Positions 47,810 to 56,201 of a stretch of DNA of 64,000 bases are shown one piece after another. Position 1 is the stretch's first letter. The number at the start of each line of letters is the position of its first letter. The notes under the pieces are model-generated. The model had not been told where the DNA came from, searched no databases, and saw only the letters and a program-made list of their open reading frames with translations. The position numbers were made by a program, and so were the translations under genes. Origin of the DNA: an uncultured candidate division Zixibacteria bacterium (GTDB lineage: Bacteria; Zixibacteria; MSB-5A5; UBA10806); NCBI GenBank assembly GCA_963817915.1, contig CAWFQL010000016.1, forward strand, positions 224,001-288,000. Reading direction: 5' to 3'.

Positions 47810-48052
47810 TCAATACTTTTCAAATGGATAGATAATCTTGTCGTCATAGATTACCCTGATAATTCGATGAAAGGGGATAATATTACCGCCCTGCGAGATG
47901 TTTTTTGATTCAATATCACATAATATCAGCGGCGCCCAGCCGATACCATTCGCGGAATCAAAATCCTTATACTCGATCTTACAAAGAGTTTGATCGAAAG
48001 TCTGGTCATGCTTGATACGATTAAGCAAATCTCGAAGCGGATTCTTTGTCAT
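47810..48052 (-). CDS. DUF504/UPF0248 (MJ1316-like) small protein
   Basis: 'LRDLLNRIKHD', 'IEYKD', signature 'IPFHRI'. Confidence 0.7.
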   Translation of the reverse strand: MTKNPLRDLLNRIKHDQTFDQTLCKIEYKDFDSANGIGWAPLILCDIESKNISQGGNIIPFHRIIRVIYDDKIIYPFEKY

Positions 48053-48756: not shown

Positions 48757-51585
48757 ATGCCACCTGAAAATATAGTAGTTAAAGGCGCTCGCGAGCACAA
48801 TCTCAAAAATATCGATGTCACTATTCCACGATCCAAGCTTGTGGTAATAACAGGTTTATCGGGTTCGGGAAAGTCATCGTTGGCATTTGATACGCTTTAC
48901 GCCGAGGGCCAGCGACGATATGTAGAATCGCTTTCAGCCTATGCCCGCCAATTCCTTGGATTGATGGAAAAACCTGATGTCGATTTTATCGACGGTCTTT
49001 CGCCGGCAATTTCGATTGAGCAACGGACTTCCGCAAGAAATCCTCGTTCTACTGTCGGGACTGTCACAGAAATATACGATTACCTTCGTTTACTCTATGC
49101 TCGAATCGGGACTCCTCATTGCTATAAATGCGGCAAGCCAATCACTCAGCAGACAGTTCAGCAAATAGCCGACACCATCATGGAGCTTCCTGAAAATAGC
49201 CGTATCCAGATCCTGGGCCCGCTTATCCGTGGCAGAAAAGGTGAATACCGTGAGATATTCGAGGAAGTCAAAAAAAGCGGATTTGTTCGGGTTCGGGTTG
49301 ATAGCAAGGTATATGATATCGAAGAAACTCCAACGCTTGACAAGCAGAAAAAGCATTCTATCGAGGTTGTAGTTGATCGTCTTGTAGTAAAAAATGGTAT
49401 TAAAAAAAGATTGACCGATTCATTGGAGACCGCGCTGAAGCTTGGAAGTGGAATGGTCATTATCGATCAAGCGGGACAAAGAGATGCCATCTATTCGGAA
49501 AATTTCGCCTGCCAGGATTGCGGGATATCGTATGAAGAGCCTGCCCCCCGAATGTTTTCATTCAATTCCCCGTTCGGTGCTTGTCCGACTTGTCTGGGGC
49601 TTGGCTTCAAGATGGAGGTTGACCCCGATCTGGTTGTCCCGGATAGAACGATTTCAATAGCCCAGGGCGCAATTGTCCCCTGGGGTGTTCCGCGTGGCAC
49701 ATATTATTTTGGAATGATTCGCGCCGTATCGGATCATTATGGATTCTCATTGAGGAAGCCATATAAGGAGCTGCCGGAAAAGGCACAGAAAATCCTATTA
49801 TTTGGTTCGGGCAAAGACGAAATCAGATTCTCATTCGAGCATAGCGAGGGCAAGGGACTCTGGGAGCATACCAATCGCTTCGAGGGAGTCGTCAACAATC
49901 TCAAACGGCGTTATCGTCAGACCGAATCGACCGGTATTCGTGAATGGATTGAAAAATTCATGGCTATCAAGCCTTGCGATGAATGTCATGGAGCCCGTCT
50001 CAAAAAGGAAGCGTTAGCTGTAAAAATCGAAGGGAAATCTATTTCCGAGGTCACATCCTATTCAGTTAAGATCGCCAATGCCTTCTTTGAGAATATGAAA
50101 TTAAACCAGCGTCAGAAAATTATTGCCAAACAAATCTTGAAAGAGATTAAAGAACGCTTGACTTTTTTGGTCAACGTTGGCCTCGATTATTTAACATTGG
50201 ATCGTTCAGCGCAAACACTCTCTGGCGGCGAAGCGCAAAGAATTAGATTAGCCACTCAAATCGGATCGCGATTGACCGGAGTGCTTTATATTCTCGATGA
50301 ACCGTCTATCGGCCTCCACCAACGGGACAATCATCGTCTTTTGGAAACATTGATTTCCCTCCGCGATATTGGCAATACGGTCTTGGTTGTCGAACACGAT
50401 CGCCAGACGATCGAATCCGCCGACTATGTGGTCGATCTCGGCCCGGGAGCGGGCAAGCTCGGCGGCGAAATAGTCGCAGAGGGTACGCCCGCAAAGATAA
50501 TGCAATCATCAAAATCCCTTACCGGCAAATATCTTTCCGGTAAACTAAAGATCGAAATTCCCAATGAACGAAGGAAAGGGAGCGGCGACAAAATCAATCT
50601 CAAGGGCGCTCGAGGCAACAATCTGAAGAAAATCAATGTCGAGTTTCCACTCGGGAGATTGATCTGTATTACAGGTGTATCCGGCAGCGGCAAATCAACT
50701 CTTATCAATGAAACCCTATATAGAATACTGTCGCGCGAATTTTACGGCTCCAAAACCCCGGCACTACTATATGATGAAGTAATCGGCTTGAAACATATCG
50801 ATAAAGTGGTGAATATCGACCAATCGCCGATAGGCAGAACACCACGAAGCAATCCCGCGACTTACACCGGTCTCTTCGCGCCAATACGCGACATATATGC
50901 CATGCTCCCCGATTCCAAGGTTCGCGGTTACGGCCCTGGACGGTTTTCATTCAATGTCAAGGGCGGCCGTTGCGAGGCTTGCGAGGGTGATGGCATAATT
51001 AAAATTGAGATGCATTTCCTGCCGGATGTCTATGTCCCCTGCGAGACCTGCAAAGGTGCACGCTACAACCGCGATACATTGGAGATCAAATACAAAGGCA
51101 AATCTATTTCCGAAGTTCTCGATATGACTGTTGAAGAAGCGCTGATATTTTTCGATCGCATCCCCCGTGTCCGACGAAAATTGGAGACATTAAAAGGTGT
51201 CGGCCTGGGATATATCCATCTCGGTCAGCAGGCTACAACTCTTTCTGGCGGCGAGGCCCAACGAATCAAGCTTTCGACCGAGCTTTCTAAGGTCGCTACC
51301 GGCAACACATTTTATATTCTCGATGAGCCGACGACCGGACTCCATTTCGAGGATATCAAGATGCTTTTGATTGTTCTTAATACGTTAGTCGATAGAGGCA
51401 ATACGGTGCTTGTGATCGAGCACAATCTCGATGTTATCAAGACCGCCGATTGGATTATCGATCTTGGTCCCGAGGGCGGCGATGATGGCGGACGAATTGT
51501 AGCAGTCGGCACTCCCGAGCAAGTCGCCCAAGTCGATTCCAGCTACACCGGCCAATTCCTGAAAGAAGAGCTGGGAATAAAATAA
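48757..51585 (+). CDS. uvrA: Excinuclease ABC subunit A
   Basis: '[10 protein letters not shown]', '[23 protein letters not shown]', zinc fingers, two 'LSGGEAQRI' motifs. Confidence 0.98.
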
Positions 51586-51605
51586 GGTTTTATGATTAAT
51601 TACTA

Positions 51606-51633
51606 TTGACTTGTTATGCGTATTCATGATAAT
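51606..51633 (+). promoter_or_regulatory. Possible sigma70 promoter for tcmP
   Basis: TTGACT-N16-GATAAT, 13 nt before an ATG that has no SD. Confidence 0.35.
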
Positions 51634-51646
51634 TTTTTAAAAATCT

Positions 51647-52543
51647 ATGAATAATCCAAATTGCAAAACCTGTTCTAAAAAAGAATATAAAACAATAGAC
51701 AATTGCCAAAAGTTTGTCGCGGATGACGGCCTGACAGCCCGTTGTGCTCCTCCTTGGACAAGCCAAAAACATAAACCGATAGGTGTATATTCGGAAATGA
51801 TAACGGAAGGGATGAAAAATAAATGGCGTGAAATAAATTATATAGATCTATATGCTGGGCCAGGCAAATATTTTGATCGGACCTCAGGAATTCTAATGGA
51901 TGGGTCACCATTAATTGCCTCAAAACTAAAATTTGACAATCTCTATCTTAATGATATAAAAAAAGAAAATGTTGATGCTCTTGAAAAACGTCTTGATGGT
52001 AGCGGAGCTAATCTACATCTTTTTTGTGATGATGCGAATGCTGTTGCCGGAAAAATCAACTCCCTACTATTGGGCAATTCCCTAAGCTTTTGTTTATTGG
52101 ATCCTAATAATATGAGTGACCTTAATTTTGATACTGTCAGGGCAATTTCAGCTAACAAAAAGAAAGTCGATCTTATGATTAATTTTGCATATGGGATGGA
52201 TTTTCAAAGATTTTCGCGGAACAAAAAATTTGAAAAGAAACAAGGAAAAATCGATTTGTTCTTTCCTTCAAATGAGTGGCGCCAAATAGAAGATAGCCAT
52301 CAAAAACGAAAAATACAATTTAGAGCCGAAAAACTAATAGATTTCTATACATCTGGATTATATCGGCTGGGATATGAAAGACCTCCCGAAGAAACCAAAT
52401 ACAAGAACTATTTTGAAATTCACAATACAAGAAATGGTAATCTTTATTATCTCATTTTCGCAAGTAAACATAAGAGAGGATATGATTTTTGTGCAAAAAT
52501 GAGGCCATACGGAAAAAATCAGACTGAATTGGATTTTAATTAA
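51647..52543 (+). CDS. tcmP: Three-Cys-motif partner protein (TcmP; SAM methyltransferase-like fold)
   Basis: 'WTSQKH', 'YIDLYAGPGKY', 'DGSPLIA', 'FCLLDP', 'DLMINF', 'YYLIFASKHKRG'. Adjacent to a DUF5131 gene. Confidence 0.8.
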   Translation: MNNPNCKTCSKKEYKTIDNCQKFVADDGLTARCAPPWTSQKHKPIGVYSEMITEGMKNKWREINYIDLYAGPGKYFDRTSGILMDGSPLIASKLKFDNLYLNDIKKENVDALEKRLDGSGANLHLFCDDANAVAGKINSLLLGNSLSFCLLDPNNMSDLNFDTVRAISANKKKVDLMINFAYGMDFQRFSRNKKFEKKQGKIDLFFPSNEWRQIEDSHQKRKIQFRAEKLIDFYTSGLYRLGYERPPEETKYKNYFEIHNTRNGNLYYLIFASKHKRGYDFCAKMRPYGKNQTELDFN

Positions 52544-52544
52544 A

Positions 52545-53267
52545 ATGGCAGCCATATCCAAAATTGAATGGACTGAATCATCCTGGAACCCCGTAACCGG
52601 ATGCGATAGAGTAAGCCCCGGATGCGCTCATTGCTATGCCGAACGCATGGCTCACCGCCTGCAACGAATCGGTCAAATTCGATATAGAGATGGATTCAGA
52701 GTTACATTGCAAGAGGATTTAATTGATCTCCCCTTAAAATGGAAAAGGCCAAGACTCATTTTTGTAAATTCGATGGGAGATTTATTTCATGAAAACATTC
52801 CGGACGAATTCATTTTCAATATTTTTCAGACAATGCAAATGGCTTCCTGGCACATTTTTCAAATTCTGACGAAAAGATCTGAAAGGCTAATGAAACTAAG
52901 CCATTTAATAGATTGGCCGGAAAATGTCTGGATGGGGGTCACTGCGGAATCGTTCAAATACATTGACCGAATAAAGGATCTGCAGAAAGTCCCGGCTAAA
53001 GTGAAATTTGTTTCAATGGAACCTCTTTTGGGCCCTATTCCTAAATTCCCATATAAAAATATAGATTGGGTTATAGTTGGCGGTGAGTCGGGCCCGAAAT
53101 CCAGACCGATGGAGGAAAATTGGGTCCTGGAAATTAGAAATCAATGCAAAGCTAATGATATTCCCTTTTTCTTCAAACAATGGGGCGGCGTTCACAAGAA
53201 GAAAAATGGCAGGCTTTTAGAAGGCAAGATATGGGATGAGACGCCCAAAATCGAATACGTCTATTAA
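52545..53267 (+). CDS. DUF5131 (phage Gp37/Gp68) radical-SAM-like protein
   Basis: 'SKIEWTESSWNPVTGCDRVSPGCAHCYAE' (Cx6Cx2C), 'IFVNSMGDLFH', 'QILTKR', 'EPLLG', 'WVIVGGESG', 'FFKQWGG'. Confidence 0.9.
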   Translation: MAAISKIEWTESSWNPVTGCDRVSPGCAHCYAERMAHRLQRIGQIRYRDGFRVTLQEDLIDLPLKWKRPRLIFVNSMGDLFHENIPDEFIFNIFQTMQMASWHIFQILTKRSERLMKLSHLIDWPENVWMGVTAESFKYIDRIKDLQKVPAKVKFVSMEPLLGPIPKFPYKNIDWVIVGGESGPKSRPMEENWVLEIRNQCKANDIPFFFKQWGGVHKKKNGRLLEGKIWDETPKIEYVY

Positions 53268-53282
53268 TTAATCTTTCTTTTC

Positions 53283-56201
53283 CTACTTCATCAACAGCAT
53301 CTTTATAGTCGCGGATTTTTCGCTAGTGTTAAGACGAGCGAAATATATTCCCGACGGATATTCGCTGGCATTCCATATAATCTCATGATACCCCGCATCC
53401 CTGCGGCCATCAAACAATTCTACTACCCGTTGACCGACAATATTGTAAATCGATATCGCGACCTCGGTAGCTTTCGGCAGTTGATAGCTGATCTTTGTCG
53501 ATGGGTTAAACGGATTCGGATAATTCTGAAGCAGCGCAACCTTATTGGGCAAAGAAGCGTTATGCTCGTCAACCGAGTTTCTTGTTTCTCCTAGTTCATC
53601 CAAAACACGATAGAGAATATCGTACGATGCCGGCTCTTCCACATAGTAAAGCGGGAATTCCATTACACCCGTATTAAAATTCTGTCCATGGTGGATTATG
53701 CCGATGGGACGATCATGATAAATCGAAGTGTCCGGATTTACGGCTACATACTTATAGATTACTTCGGAACTATCATTGGGAATCAATGTTCCAATACCCA
53801 TGAGCCGTCCCGTATGATCATTGGGGGGGACAATTATCCTGCGCGCTCTTGTCGTATCGACATCGAAATCAGGAAATCCCTCAACCACAGAATGGCCGCC
53901 GATAAACTCCGAATTGTGTGAGGATGGAAACTCCACTCCCGCTAAGTTCAAAAACCGCCAGGCAAAATCATTCGGAACATAATCATGCCTGCCATAGAAG
54001 TTCTGATTCACCACGAGCCTGGTGCCGAACAAAAGAAGGTTGCCGCCCGCATTCAGATAATCAGTATAAAGGTGACTTTGGTCTCCAGGATCGAATATTA
54101 GCCTCCCGGAATATAATTCCTTACACAACACAACAGTCGAATAGCCTACTAGATCGGAAATTGAATACGGCGCTCTGTTTAATATTGTATAGTTATATTC
54201 ACTGAAAATATTATCGTAGAACACCATCATCGAATCGTAATCGGGATTATTAAAATCATCGCGGTTACCATTGACAATCAGAATACCGGCGCCAAACCAC
54301 ATCGGAATTGCCGAGGCCGTATCCGACGCTGCCGATGAGTTGCCAACTGAATCCAAGGCCGTGATGTAATAATAATAGGTAATCCCATTCCCGACAACCT
54401 GATCGAGATAGCTGCTATCGGGCGCAAAGTCTATCAACTCAAAACCATATGTATGTTCCGAACGGTATATATTGTATCCAATAATATCATTTTCCCGCAA
54501 AACATTCCAGGTAAGCTGAACCTGCAAGTCGCCGCCAGTGGCAGTCAATCCTTGCGGCATGTGCGGCCGACCGGAATTGATCGGTATTTCGCTTGAAAAG
54601 CCTCCTTGAATACCGGAAATATCGACCGAGGCTATCGCATAATAATATTGGGTATTGTCCTGTACCGTGTTATCGACAAAAACCGTATCTGTAAAATTAT
54701 CCGGCGTGATCGGCTCTGACCCGTATACACCCGGCGCGGTCCCGCGATATAAATTGTAATGGGCAAACCGAGGGCTGTTTTTTCGACTCCATATGAAGCT
54801 GATTTGGCTGCCGCTCCATTCGGTCACTCGTAGATTACGTGGCGGGCCAAGCGGAATATTCGCGTATCCCCTATTATAAAAATTAATTGCCGAATCAGCC
54901 GAAGCATATAGATTTGAAAAATTCAAATTATTATAATATTGCCTGATCGAAATTGTATCGCCGGTATGATCTTGGAGATTCTGCGCAAAATTCTGAGGAT
55001 CTACATGGAGATGCTGACCGCCAATATACGCCACAGTCAATGTCTCAACCGAATTGGGTGAAAACTGAAACGGTCCAAATGAAATCAGGTATTGCGTGTC
55101 AATGCCATCGGCAATACTAGTGGCATTCGCGCACGGCTCAATCCATCCACTGCCGCTATAATCGATGGCTGCATACGCCTGATCGTAGTCGTGTTCGCCA
55201 TTAGACATTACCTGGTATTTTGCCTTATCTCCTCCGGGAGTCCCTCTTCCGCCGCCAGGGAAGACTCCCCATCTATCGAAATTGCTGATTAATTGCGGCC
55301 CCCAATCGATTTCCGAGCTTGTATTGCTAATCCACCAATTAAAATTTGTCTGCGGAGTTCCCTGTGATGTTCCCAATAACATCAGACCCAAAACTCCCAG
55401 CGGACTTCGATAATCAAATTGACCATTGTAAGGCTGGCCATCATTATCCGCTGTCCAGGCAATATCATGTCCCGAATATTCGACGAATCCGCTTAAATCA
55501 TCTATCCAGCCCGGATCGAAAGGATCCTCGCTCGGATAATAAACATCTCCGTTATAATATATCCCAAACCAAACATTATGAAGATTCCGTCCGCCGATAT
55601 TTTCGACCACAAACTTTAGAATCGCCAGGTCATTGTAGCCGATTGTGCTCCAGCCGAAACTATTTTGCGTAATTCTCAAACCCAGTGGTATATGCGGCCT
55701 GCCGTCATTAGGATCCGGCGCAACAAATCTCCGGTCGGTAAATGTGTCACAATATATGGCCGCGATATCCTCATCCCCAATATCATAGATTCGCCGCAAT
55801 GATTCATCAGCTGGCAATGGGGGAAACCATTCCCAGGTATTGCTCCACCATCCGTCATTGCCTACGGAAACCAGGGTATCGAGAATCGGATTGCCGGATG
55901 AATCGAATGTATCGATTTCAGCGCCAATCCAGATAGAGCCGAAAAAGAGATTCTCGATTCCTGAATTGGCCGGAAAGATGGCCCCCGGAGCATACCAGCC
56001 ATTGTCAGGGTCAGGAATGAAACTATTCATAGACCCTATCAAGCCAAAGTTCGTTACTGAAAAATTGATATTGGGCTCACGATGTACGAGCAATCGGGTT
56101 TCAGGCAAATCCAGGATATGGGAAAAATTGTTGGGTCGCTGTCCGGCAGTGGCTGATGAACAAATGACCAAAATGCTGAAAAGCAATATCACTTTTTTCA
56201 T
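53283..56201 (-). CDS. Secreted FN3-repeat protein with T9SS-type C-terminal sorting domain
   Basis: Signal peptide, two FN3 modules ('PPRNL..YNLYR..YYYAIASVD', 'PQGLTA..GYNIYRS..YYYYITALD'), CTD 'LLQNYPNPFNPST..SGIYFARL..KMLLMK'. Confidence 0.85.
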   Translation of the reverse strand: MKKVILLFSILVICSSATAGQRPNNFSHILDLPETRLLVHREPNINFSVTNFGLIGSMNSFIPDPDNGWYAPGAIFPANSGIENLFFGSIWIGAEIDTFDSSGNPILDTLVSVGNDGWWSNTWEWFPPLPADESLRRIYDIGDEDIAAIYCDTFTDRRFVAPDPNDGRPHIPLGLRITQNSFGWSTIGYNDLAILKFVVENIGGRNLHNVWFGIYYNGDVYYPSEDPFDPGWIDDLSGFVEYSGHDIAWTADNDGQPYNGQFDYRSPLGVLGLMLLGTSQGTPQTNFNWWISNTSSEIDWGPQLISNFDRWGVFPGGGRGTPGGDKAKYQVMSNGEHDYDQAYAAIDYSGSGWIEPCANATSIADGIDTQYLISFGPFQFSPNSVETLTVAYIGGQHLHVDPQNFAQNLQDHTGDTISIRQYYNNLNFSNLYASADSAINFYNRGYANIPLGPPRNLRVTEWSGSQISFIWSRKNSPRFAHYNLYRGTAPGVYGSEPITPDNFTDTVFVDNTVQDNTQYYYAIASVDISGIQGGFSSEIPINSGRPHMPQGLTATGGDLQVQLTWNVLRENDIIGYNIYRSEHTYGFELIDFAPDSSYLDQVVGNGITYYYYITALDSVGNSSAASDTASAIPMWFGAGILIVNGNRDDFNNPDYDSMMVFYDNIFSEYNYTILNRAPYSISDLVGYSTVVLCKELYSGRLIFDPGDQSHLYTDYLNAGGNLLLFGTRLVVNQNFYGRHDYVPNDFAWRFLNLAGVEFPSSHNSEFIGGHSVVEGFPDFDVDTTRARRIIVPPNDHTGRLMGIGTLIPNDSSEVIYKYVAVNPDTSIYHDRPIGIIHHGQNFNTGVMEFPLYYVEEPASYDILYRVLDELGETRNSVDEHNASLPNKVALLQNYPNPFNPSTKISYQLPKATEVAISIYNIVGQRVVELFDGRRDAGYHEIIWNASEYPSGIYFARLNTSEKSATIKMLLMK

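Follow-up and report, generated by a model that had tools for sequence, protein, structure and literature searches.

TcmP and DUF5131 downstream of uvrA in a Zixibacteria bacterium: a variable methyltransferase-like protein, a constant radical-SAM-like partner and a possible role in phage-host conflict

What do a methyltransferase-like protein and a radical S-adenosylmethionine (SAM)-like protein do together when their genes lie side by side just downstream of uvrA? The question is raised by a stretch of 64,000 nucleotides (hereafter the window) from an uncultured candidate division Zixibacteria bacterium (assembly GCA_963817915.1, contig CAWFQL010000016.1, positions 224,001 to 288,000 of the forward strand). 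A preliminary description of the window had singled out two genes, tcmP and a member of the DUF5131 family, as a candidate system of DNA hypermodification or defence. The list of open reading frames (ORFs) places them 1 nt apart between uvrA and a convergent gene, as that description had said. The answer favoured here, and held tentatively, is that the pair is a conflict module, in which TcmP would select foreign nucleic acid and DUF5131 would alter or damage it by radical chemistry. Earlier records already contain the pair itself, its cysteine motif, its assignment to the radical-SAM enzymes and its listing as a defence candidate. The new elements are the replacement of the partner in place at a conserved chromosomal site, the quantified asymmetry in GC content and rate, and the position of the pair in the lysogeny module of viral contigs.

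Both genes belong to the families to which they had been assigned. The first matches the NCBIfam model TIGR04474 (TcmP) with 148.6 bits (3e-43, cut-off 53) over profile positions 1–255 of 263, and the second matches Pfam PF07505 (DUF5131) with 325.9 bits (2.1e-97, threshold 28.9) over positions 2–243 of 243. With both models above cut-off and the adjacency that defines the TcmP family present, the locus is a regular member of it. Gene 2 also matches phrog_2045 and shows a sub-threshold match to GP88 beside that to PF07505; no Pfam model matches gene 1 at E ≤ 0.1.

The association is close in other genomes. The comparison covers 80 loci, taken from Methanoregula and from named genomes in many phyla of bacteria, with ORFs delimited by a simple longest-ORF rule and with masked stretches in some loci. 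TcmP was detected, here as in the viral loci discussed below, with a profile built from the relatives of this copy, and divergent forms of TcmP are therefore undercounted. Even so, it adjoins DUF5131 in at least 65 of the 80 loci (59 of the 73 with a kept DUF5131 ORF, and six of the remaining seven), so that the pairing is indeed the rule that the preliminary description had taken it to be. Among the 59 TcmP neighbours, 53 are upstream on the same strand, two are downstream and four are on the opposite strand, and the gap is between -4 and +14 nt in 40 of the 55 same-strand pairs. Of the loci without a TcmP neighbour, three end at a contig edge and 11 have another neighbour. Among the genes that replace TcmP directly upstream of DUF5131 are those for an AIPR protein, AAA_16/STAND-like ATPases and DUF1828/DUF1829 proteins (PDC-M24B), and further occupants of the slot are a KilA-N protein and an M78 peptidase with a helix-turn-helix (HTH). 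The DUF1828/DUF1829 proteins (PDC-M24B, about 1e-105) are found beside DUF5131 in three loci (L073, 4826-5713; L082, 5213-5977; L091, 2234-2998; handles with L designate loci, those with G related genomes); two of these come from Methanoregula, and the usual TcmP slot is occupied in two of the three. The tcmP and DUF5131 genes are almost certainly made together and, judging from spacing and co-occurrence, their products probably act as a complex.

The two members of the pair evolve very differently. All 80 loci have a DUF5131 that is 55–68% identical to the window copy. Among the 51 full-length pairs (834 comparisons) the median pairwise identity is 64% for DUF5131 but only 25.6% for TcmP, and the divergences of the two proteins are uncorrelated (Spearman 0.014), in a sample whose DUF5131 range is narrowed by its selection for DUF5131 similarity. 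Database matches show the same pattern: more than 8,000 clusters match DUF5131 at E ≤ 1e-30, the 120 matches listed being 60–71% identical, and TcmP has 192 matches at E ≤ 1e-5, with identity at about 30–35% after the first dozen. Base composition is also asymmetric: relative to the 3-kb flanks, GC content is reduced in tcmP at 47 of 49 loci (mean difference 9.6 points) and in DUF5131 at 39 of 49 (4.8 points), and tcmP is poorer in GC than DUF5131 at 44 of 49. Asymmetry of this kind is characteristic of systems in which a specificity subunit works with a constant enzyme.

The history of the uvrA flank shows this asymmetry at a single site. PF07505 is present in 31 of 61 related genomes, the window's own included. 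Within the family, uvrA was found in 12 of 14 genomes, and DUF5131 lies just 3′ of it in four of the 12 flanks and in three of six genera. In G007 the uvrA contig breaks off 70 nt or more into the N-terminus of a TcmP (hmmsearch, 8.4e-9) and another contig end carries a TcmP C-terminus followed by DUF5131; hence the order uvrA-tcmP-DUF5131 recurs in this genome, interrupted by a break in the assembly. When the syntenic copies of G000 and G007 are compared, DUF5131 is 68% identical (5e-128) and the C-terminus of UvrA 82% identical, whereas TcmP, over the 136 residues that can be compared, shows 24% identity (E 0.011). Hence, DUF5131 was kept in place while TcmP was replaced or diverged past recognition by BLAST. 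In a tree of 90 tips (MAFFT and FastTree), from which the divergent or broken copies of G003, G006 and G009 and the duplicate L059 were omitted, the DUF5131 proteins of G000, G004, G007, G008, G012 and G013 and of a Candidatus Zixiibacteriota metagenome-assembled genome (MAG) form one clade, with a local support of 0.978; the protein of G010 lies outside it. The cassette has thus long occupied the 3′ flank of uvrA in these bacteria and is not a recent insert.

Other family genomes have different genes at this site. In G004 and G008 uvrA is followed by an AAA_16/STAND-like ATPase and then by DUF5131, without TcmP, in G009 by the ATPase alone, and in seven others by unrelated genes. The ATPase of these three relatives (L040, 1270-2478; L043, 1271-2467; L047, 952-2150) has about 400 residues and weak matches to BrxC/D and nSTAND1. 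In G008 (L047, 13-2150), the uvrA match contains an in-frame TGA and the ATPase is split into ORFs of 149 and 250 aa, which reflects either decay of the flank or an assembly error. No clean empty site could be defined among the family genomes compared, because there is no close relative (UvrA C-termini are 82–85% identical across genera) and because the region downstream of uvrA differs nearly everywhere.

This long occupation bears on the claim that the two genes had been inserted next to uvrA, a claim that is right only in part. With a GC content of 0.341 and a third-position GC (GC3) of 0.268, tcmP falls within the lowest 0.25% of the 11,060 windows of 900 bp in a genome of GC 0.448. The DUF5131 gene (0.415) is only mildly low, at the 16th percentile of these windows, so that the AT-richness ascribed to both genes relative to uvrA (0.473) is strong in the first and slight in the second. 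Searches for tRNA, tmRNA and Rfam families at the locus found none. A mobile-element scar was considered in the only flanking repeat, a weak 12-nt AT-rich inverted repeat (51594-51605 and 53262-53273, 11 of 12 positions complementary) that brackets the whole cassette, and was rejected as probably a chance occurrence because the repeat is one of 15 such pairs within 2 kb.

The position next to uvrA had also prompted an alternative, lesion repair, in which DUF5131 would reverse a lesion by radical chemistry and TcmP would find and flip the damaged base, aiding or backing up nucleotide excision repair. The retention of DUF5131 3′ of uvrA in four family genomes speaks for it, and repair genes do occur among the flanks of the 80 loci, namely Ada/Ogt twice, MutL, a PolX-like protein and DprA. 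However, UvrA is absent from the 136 proteins flanking the 80 other loci, about five repair genes in 136 are not clearly above the share that a genome usually devotes to repair, and one would not expect a repair factor to have a hypervariable AT-rich partner. Nor is there a sign of SOS control. Although the genome has lexA, the 61-nt spacer between the uvrA stop and the tcmP start contains neither GAAC-N4-GTTC, nor CTGT-N8-ACAG, nor the repeat of the genome's own lexA promoter, and the closest LexA-box-like matches have two mismatches and fall inside coding sequence. Four LexA-box patterns counted in 68 upstream regions were as frequent as the whole loci would predict, with a single perfect GAAC-N4-GTTC (L094); SOS control was set aside on this weak negative. 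With UvrA missing from the 136 flanking proteins and no LexA-box signal, the uvrA context lends little support to repair; the linkage to uvrA is best read as inherited synteny. The Ada/Ogt gene is in both loci a fusion of an Ada zinc domain, an AraC HTH and an O6-methylguanine methyltransferase (L067 and L088, 6755-7822, minus strand), convergent and downstream of DUF5131; the sources are a Melioribacter MAG and a Bacteroidetes MAG.

What the proteins could do is suggested by their folds, and the structural statements made here rest on predicted models for both. The AlphaFold2 model of DUF5131 (46 sequences, predicted local distance difference test (pLDDT) 91.7) has six core strands and a predicted radical-SAM fold, a partial (beta/alpha)6 barrel, which upholds the radical-SAM-like character given to it earlier. 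Foldseek returned no match at E ≤ 1e-3, and a sequence search found no PDB chain. In VIA-align, spore photoproduct lyase comes first (4fhc, Z 13.9, root-mean-square deviation 3.0 over 196 residues), leading the next match by 2.8 Z units; viperin (Z 11.1) and SuiB (11.0) follow, and the top 24 structural matches, with Z of 8.5–13.9, are all radical-SAM enzymes. C20, C27 and C30 are unchanged across 46 aligned homologues and presumably hold a [4Fe-4S] cluster. In the GGESGP stretch G179 is invariant and G180, E181, S182, G183 and P184 are at least 90% conserved (46 sequences); by analogy with other radical-SAM motifs, this stretch presumably takes part in SAM binding. The canonical radical-SAM motif is CX3CX2C, and the triad of this protein had been regarded as non-canonical. 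Its spacing, CX6CX2C, is instead the signature published for DUF5131 as Megacluster-5-2, a radical-SAM subgroup, and the RadicalSAM.org account places this subgroup and that of spore photoproduct lyase in one megacluster (PMC9477430). There is also a weak sequence relation to TIGR04471, the “radical SAM mobile pair protein A”, by name another mobile two-gene radical-SAM unit; with 86.4 bits against a cut-off of 355, DUF5131 falls far short of membership and represents a different family.

The leading position of spore photoproduct lyase, together with the shared megacluster, is the other argument for repair, since this enzyme reverses a lesion by radical chemistry. The likeness is nevertheless confined to the fold: identity is 11%, there is no match to the lyase family at the sequence level, DUF5131 has 240 residues against 340, its triad is CX6CX2C, and spore photoproduct lyase works without a methyltransferase-fold partner. 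With the evidence of the flanks, a repair function appears unlikely. The second match points elsewhere. Viperins convert a nucleotide to an antiviral analogue, and DUF5131 might similarly make a small antiviral product, TcmP then modifying this product or regulating the enzyme. The strong conservation of DUF5131 in bacteria and archaea would fit a universal small substrate. Yet viperin ties with several unrelated radical-SAM enzymes (Z 10.3–11.1), a product-modifying enzyme is not expected to be hypervariable, and the relatives of TcmP act on polynucleotides, so that such a function would be quite surprising.

TcmP too has the fold and motifs expected from the preliminary description, which had called it SAM-binding-like and had located the loop YIDLYAGPG and the motif-IV-like LLDPNN. 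Its AlphaFold2 model (60 sequences, pLDDT 89.9) is a class I methyltransferase fold resembling RlmJ; its structural neighbours include 2oo3 (Z 15.6), RlmJ itself (6qe5, Z 14.6) and Trm1 (Z 14.5). Foldseek retrieved 90 PDB chains at E ≤ 1e-3, all those listed being SAM-dependent methyltransferases or proteins of methyltransferase-like fold. A sequence search of the PDB gave one chance-level match only, and a profile of the 60 sequences matches RlmJ chains at E 2.7e-4, aligning YiDlFaGpG with YLDTHAGAG, GSPLIA with GSPLIA and flDP-eG with LIDPPYE. RlmJ/DUF519, the 23S rRNA A2030-N6 methyltransferase (6qe5, 2oo3), is thus the closest solved relative by both profile and fold, sharing the motifs YxDxxAGxG, GSPLIA and xDP. 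TcmP differs from it in lacking the PY of DPPY, in having no match to the Pfam RlmJ model PF04378 (the TcmP of a relative reaches only 18.3 bits against a cut-off of 27) and in being mobile, hypervariable and paired with a radical-SAM protein.

Conservation within TcmP is concentrated on these motifs. Among 60 sequences about 30% identical, G71, G73, G86, S87, P153 and D175 are invariant, D67, P72 and D152 are at least 90% conserved, and S273 and K274 are nearly invariant. TcmP is therefore not a decaying gene, as the SAM loop and the D-P of motif IV are unchanged despite the divergence, and it retains the requirements for SAM binding and for the approach to a flipped nucleotide. The second proline and the aromatic residue of the RlmJ motif are missing. 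This TcmP is a short form (298 aa), without the C-terminal winged-helix domain (PF22560) that some of the longer forms carry. It has instead an N-terminal stretch of four cysteines, modelled with two short strands (pLDDT 61–89); at least four cysteines precede the conserved tryptophan in 16 of the 60 aligned TcmP proteins, all closer relatives of this copy. The stretch looks like a zinc ribbon that may have been added in one subfamily and may bind metal.

That the best solved relatives of TcmP are the RNA enzymes RlmJ, Trm1, Trm5a and TYW2 raises the possibility that the pair modifies a nucleotide of tRNA or rRNA, whether of the host or of a phage. There is a precedent in the wybutosine pathway, which combines a radical-SAM enzyme with enzymes of methyltransferase fold. 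TYW1, RimO, MiaB and Cfr are among the fold matches of DUF5131 (Z 7.5–8.5), and one mycobacteriophage DUF5131 is labelled “RNA methyltransferase”, although this is annotation only. DUF5131 matches these RNA enzymes no better than many other radical-SAM enzymes, however, and the patchy distribution of PF07505 in related genomes is unlike that of a housekeeping modification. Mobility and a hypervariable partner are not expected of one either, and the winged-helix domain of some TcmP proteins is a further point against it. An RNA substrate of this kind is therefore rated as improbable.

The context of the pair in other genomes points more to genetic conflict. In PADLOC the pair is listed as the defence candidates PDC-M41 and PDC-M30, in accordance with the defence role first suggested for it: gene 2 matches PDC-M41B (2e-113) and PDC-M30B (1.7e-110), gene 1 matches PDC-M41A (1.7e-11) and PDC-M30A (3.6e-9) only weakly, and the A and B components are adjacent on the same strand. 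PDC candidates were proposed from their embedding in BREX, DISARM or type I restriction-modification (RM) operons (Payne et al. preprint); the main text of this preprint does not contain the names PDC-M30 or PDC-M41. The present copy differs in not being embedded in BREX, DISARM or type I RM, and the literature searched contains no anti-phage test of PDC-M41 or PDC-M30. In the 80-locus comparison, PADLOC models are matched at E ≤ 1e-15 by 20 of the 136 flanking proteins, spread over 17 loci. One pair (L096) stands between hsdS and hsdR of a type I system, and another (L066) has a type I HsdR in its flank; further matches are to SoFic (twice), a DRT reverse transcriptase, a type IIG enzyme, a TIR protein, RmrA-like proteins and an AriA/Old-like ATPase. 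Pfam matches in the flanks add parts of toxin-antitoxin systems, an integrase and KilA-N and ORF6N domains, together with many metabolic genes. In S. meliloti, a gene for a TcmP is located near hna and increases together with hna in a nolR+ strain (PMC12445080).

The statement that DUF5131 and TcmP also occur in phages can be extended. Of 50,697 phage records, 180 contain DUF5131, and most of these belong to Mycobacterium and Gordonia phages. In Gordonia phage Fairfaxidum, gp42 (DUF5131) and the convergent gp43 lie beside the immunity repressor and near the integrase, and gp43, annotated as “methyltransferase”, is a TcmP by hidden Markov model (HMM) search (3.6e-31). A tblastn search of the phage records with the window TcmP gave no match; as the HMM finds the phage TcmP, BLAST is too insensitive for this family. 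Among 80 IMG/VR loci TcmP is adjacent in 39 (14 upstream and six downstream on the same strand, 19 convergent). The convergent pairs (L156-L210) often overlap by 4 nt at their ends, unlike the co-directional order of 53 of the 80 cellular loci. A repressor or integrase lies within two genes of the pair in 16 of these 39 loci; terminase, portal or head genes are as close in five, distal tail genes in four, and a helicase, primase or ligase is near about five. Such a location is typical of the accessory genes of prophages, not of a phage's DNA-synthesis module. In three viral contigs (L140, L143 and L162) the pair adjoins the large terminase gene, and in two of these it is flanked by terminase and portal, a position where HNH endonucleases are often found.

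The viral position bears on the proposal that the pair marks DNA of its own cell or phage, as a restriction shield or an epigenetic mark, without a matching nuclease. Phages commonly modify their DNA to protect it, and the occurrence of the pair in phages fits this proposal, as do the two SAM-using enzymes, one with a methyltransferase fold and one radical. The preliminary description had seen no evident nuclease, and indeed no nuclease, integrase or other defence gene lies in the 28 kb around the cassette; elsewhere an MmeI/type IIG enzyme is an occasional neighbour (L107). The viral pairs are however more often near a repressor or integrase than near replication genes. Moreover, motif IV of amino-methyltransferases takes the form (D/N)PP(Y/F), its aromatic residue being expected for amino-methylation of bases and missing from TcmP, and self-marking would not readily explain why TcmP turns over so extremely fast and is so poor in GC. 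On balance, the marking of the pair's own DNA is considered unlikely.

The conflict module keeps the same two activities and directs them at foreign nucleic acid. One translationally coupled two-gene unit would act on nucleic acid, presumably DNA, in the conflict between phage and host. TcmP would be its SAM-binding, target-selecting subunit, possibly transferring a group as well, and DUF5131 its constant catalytic subunit, whose 5′-deoxyadenosyl radical would modify or damage a base or sugar offered to it by TcmP. It is proposed that TcmP turns over fast because the target it recognises is foreign and changing. The variability of TcmP outside the SAM loop and the D-P fits a target-selecting subunit, and the constancy of DUF5131 across domains of life fits a catalytic subunit whose substrate is universal, for example a base or sugar of nucleic acids. 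In a more specific form the pair would perform restriction without a nuclease: a base-flipping pocket of TcmP, derived from a methyltransferase, would read foreign (e.g., modified) bases or sequences, the DUF5131 radical would destroy or cross-link the flipped nucleotide, and specificity would change through the swapping of TcmP alleles in place, as at the uvrA flank of this family, with DUF5131 almost unchanged between bacteria, archaea and phages. This particular mechanism is a rather doubtful one.

Several observations weigh against a conflict module. The family-level clade of DUF5131 implies that the gene has long been kept by vertical inheritance, an unusual history for defence genes, and the setting of the cassette is one of housekeeping genes, with no other defence gene in those 28 kb. 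The nearest solved relatives of TcmP methylate RNA, not DNA. The enrichment of defence genes in the flanks elsewhere is an impression rather than the outcome of a matched comparison. As 41 of the 80 viral loci have no adjacent TcmP by the profile used, DUF5131 may work alone there. Finally, the literature searched contains no experiment on the TcmP-DUF5131 pair.

The surroundings of the cassette in the window comprise chemotaxis genes, hypD, hypF, hycI, an AIR-synthase-related gene, yidC and mnmE. An ORF of 80 aa (47810-48052, minus strand), between the hydrogenase maturation genes and uvrA, matches PF04457 (4.9e-9), the MJ1316 domain named for “RNA cyclic group end recognition”. The convergent gene ends 15 nt downstream of DUF5131, and its product is a member of a large paralogous family that is present in all 61 genomes searched. 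No terminator-like site was found between uvrA and tcmP. The spacer contains a promoter-like site (Table 1), and the syntenic spacer of G007 reads TTGACC-17-TATAAT; promoter-like sites in the region are near chance (nine against a shuffled mean of 7.6).

Table 1. Positions in the window of the two genes, their conserved elements and their immediate context
Feature	Position	Strand	Remarks
uvrA (context gene)	48757-51585	+	942 aa; Pfam UvrA_inter 3.8e-42, UvrA_DNA-bind 1.3e-39
Promoter-like TTGACT-16 nt-GATAAT in uvrA-tcmP spacer	51606-51633	+	Consensus match only, 10/12
tcmP ORF	51647-52543	+	298 aa; fast-evolving, AT-rich partner; TIGR04474 match
TcmP N-terminal four-Cys stretch (C6, C9, C20, C33)	51662-51745	+	Residues 6-33; C-x2-C...C...C
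TcmP motif I, SAM-binding loop YIDLYAGPG	51839-51865	+	Residues 65-73; aligns with YLDTHAGAG of RlmJ
TcmP motif IV remnant LLDPNN	52094-52111	+	Residues 150-155; aligns with LIDPPYE of RlmJ
DUF5131 ORF	52545-53267	+	240 aa; highly conserved member of the pair; PF07505 match
DUF5131 CX6CX2C triad (C20, C27, C30)	52602-52634	+	Presumed [4Fe-4S] site
DUF5131 GGESGP, Gly-Gly-Glu stretch	53079-53096	+	Residues 179-184; end of last core strand (175-179)
Convergent secreted-protein gene (context, outside the unit)	53283-56201	-	972 aa; type IX secretion sorting tail, Por_Secre_tail 6.4e-10

A single instance adds little to a pair that is already catalogued. The value of this locus is that it provides a natural comparison, the same site in related genera with a conserved enzyme and a replaced partner. 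Such a replacement at a shared site suggests that specificity resides in TcmP, and it supplies matched alleles. Among the radical-SAM subgroups for which no reaction is known, DUF5131 is one of the largest, and TcmP is equally unstudied. The substrate of DUF5131, once found, would add a new radical-SAM reaction on nucleic acids, and, if the defence role is true, the pair would inactivate invading DNA in a new manner that needs no nuclease.

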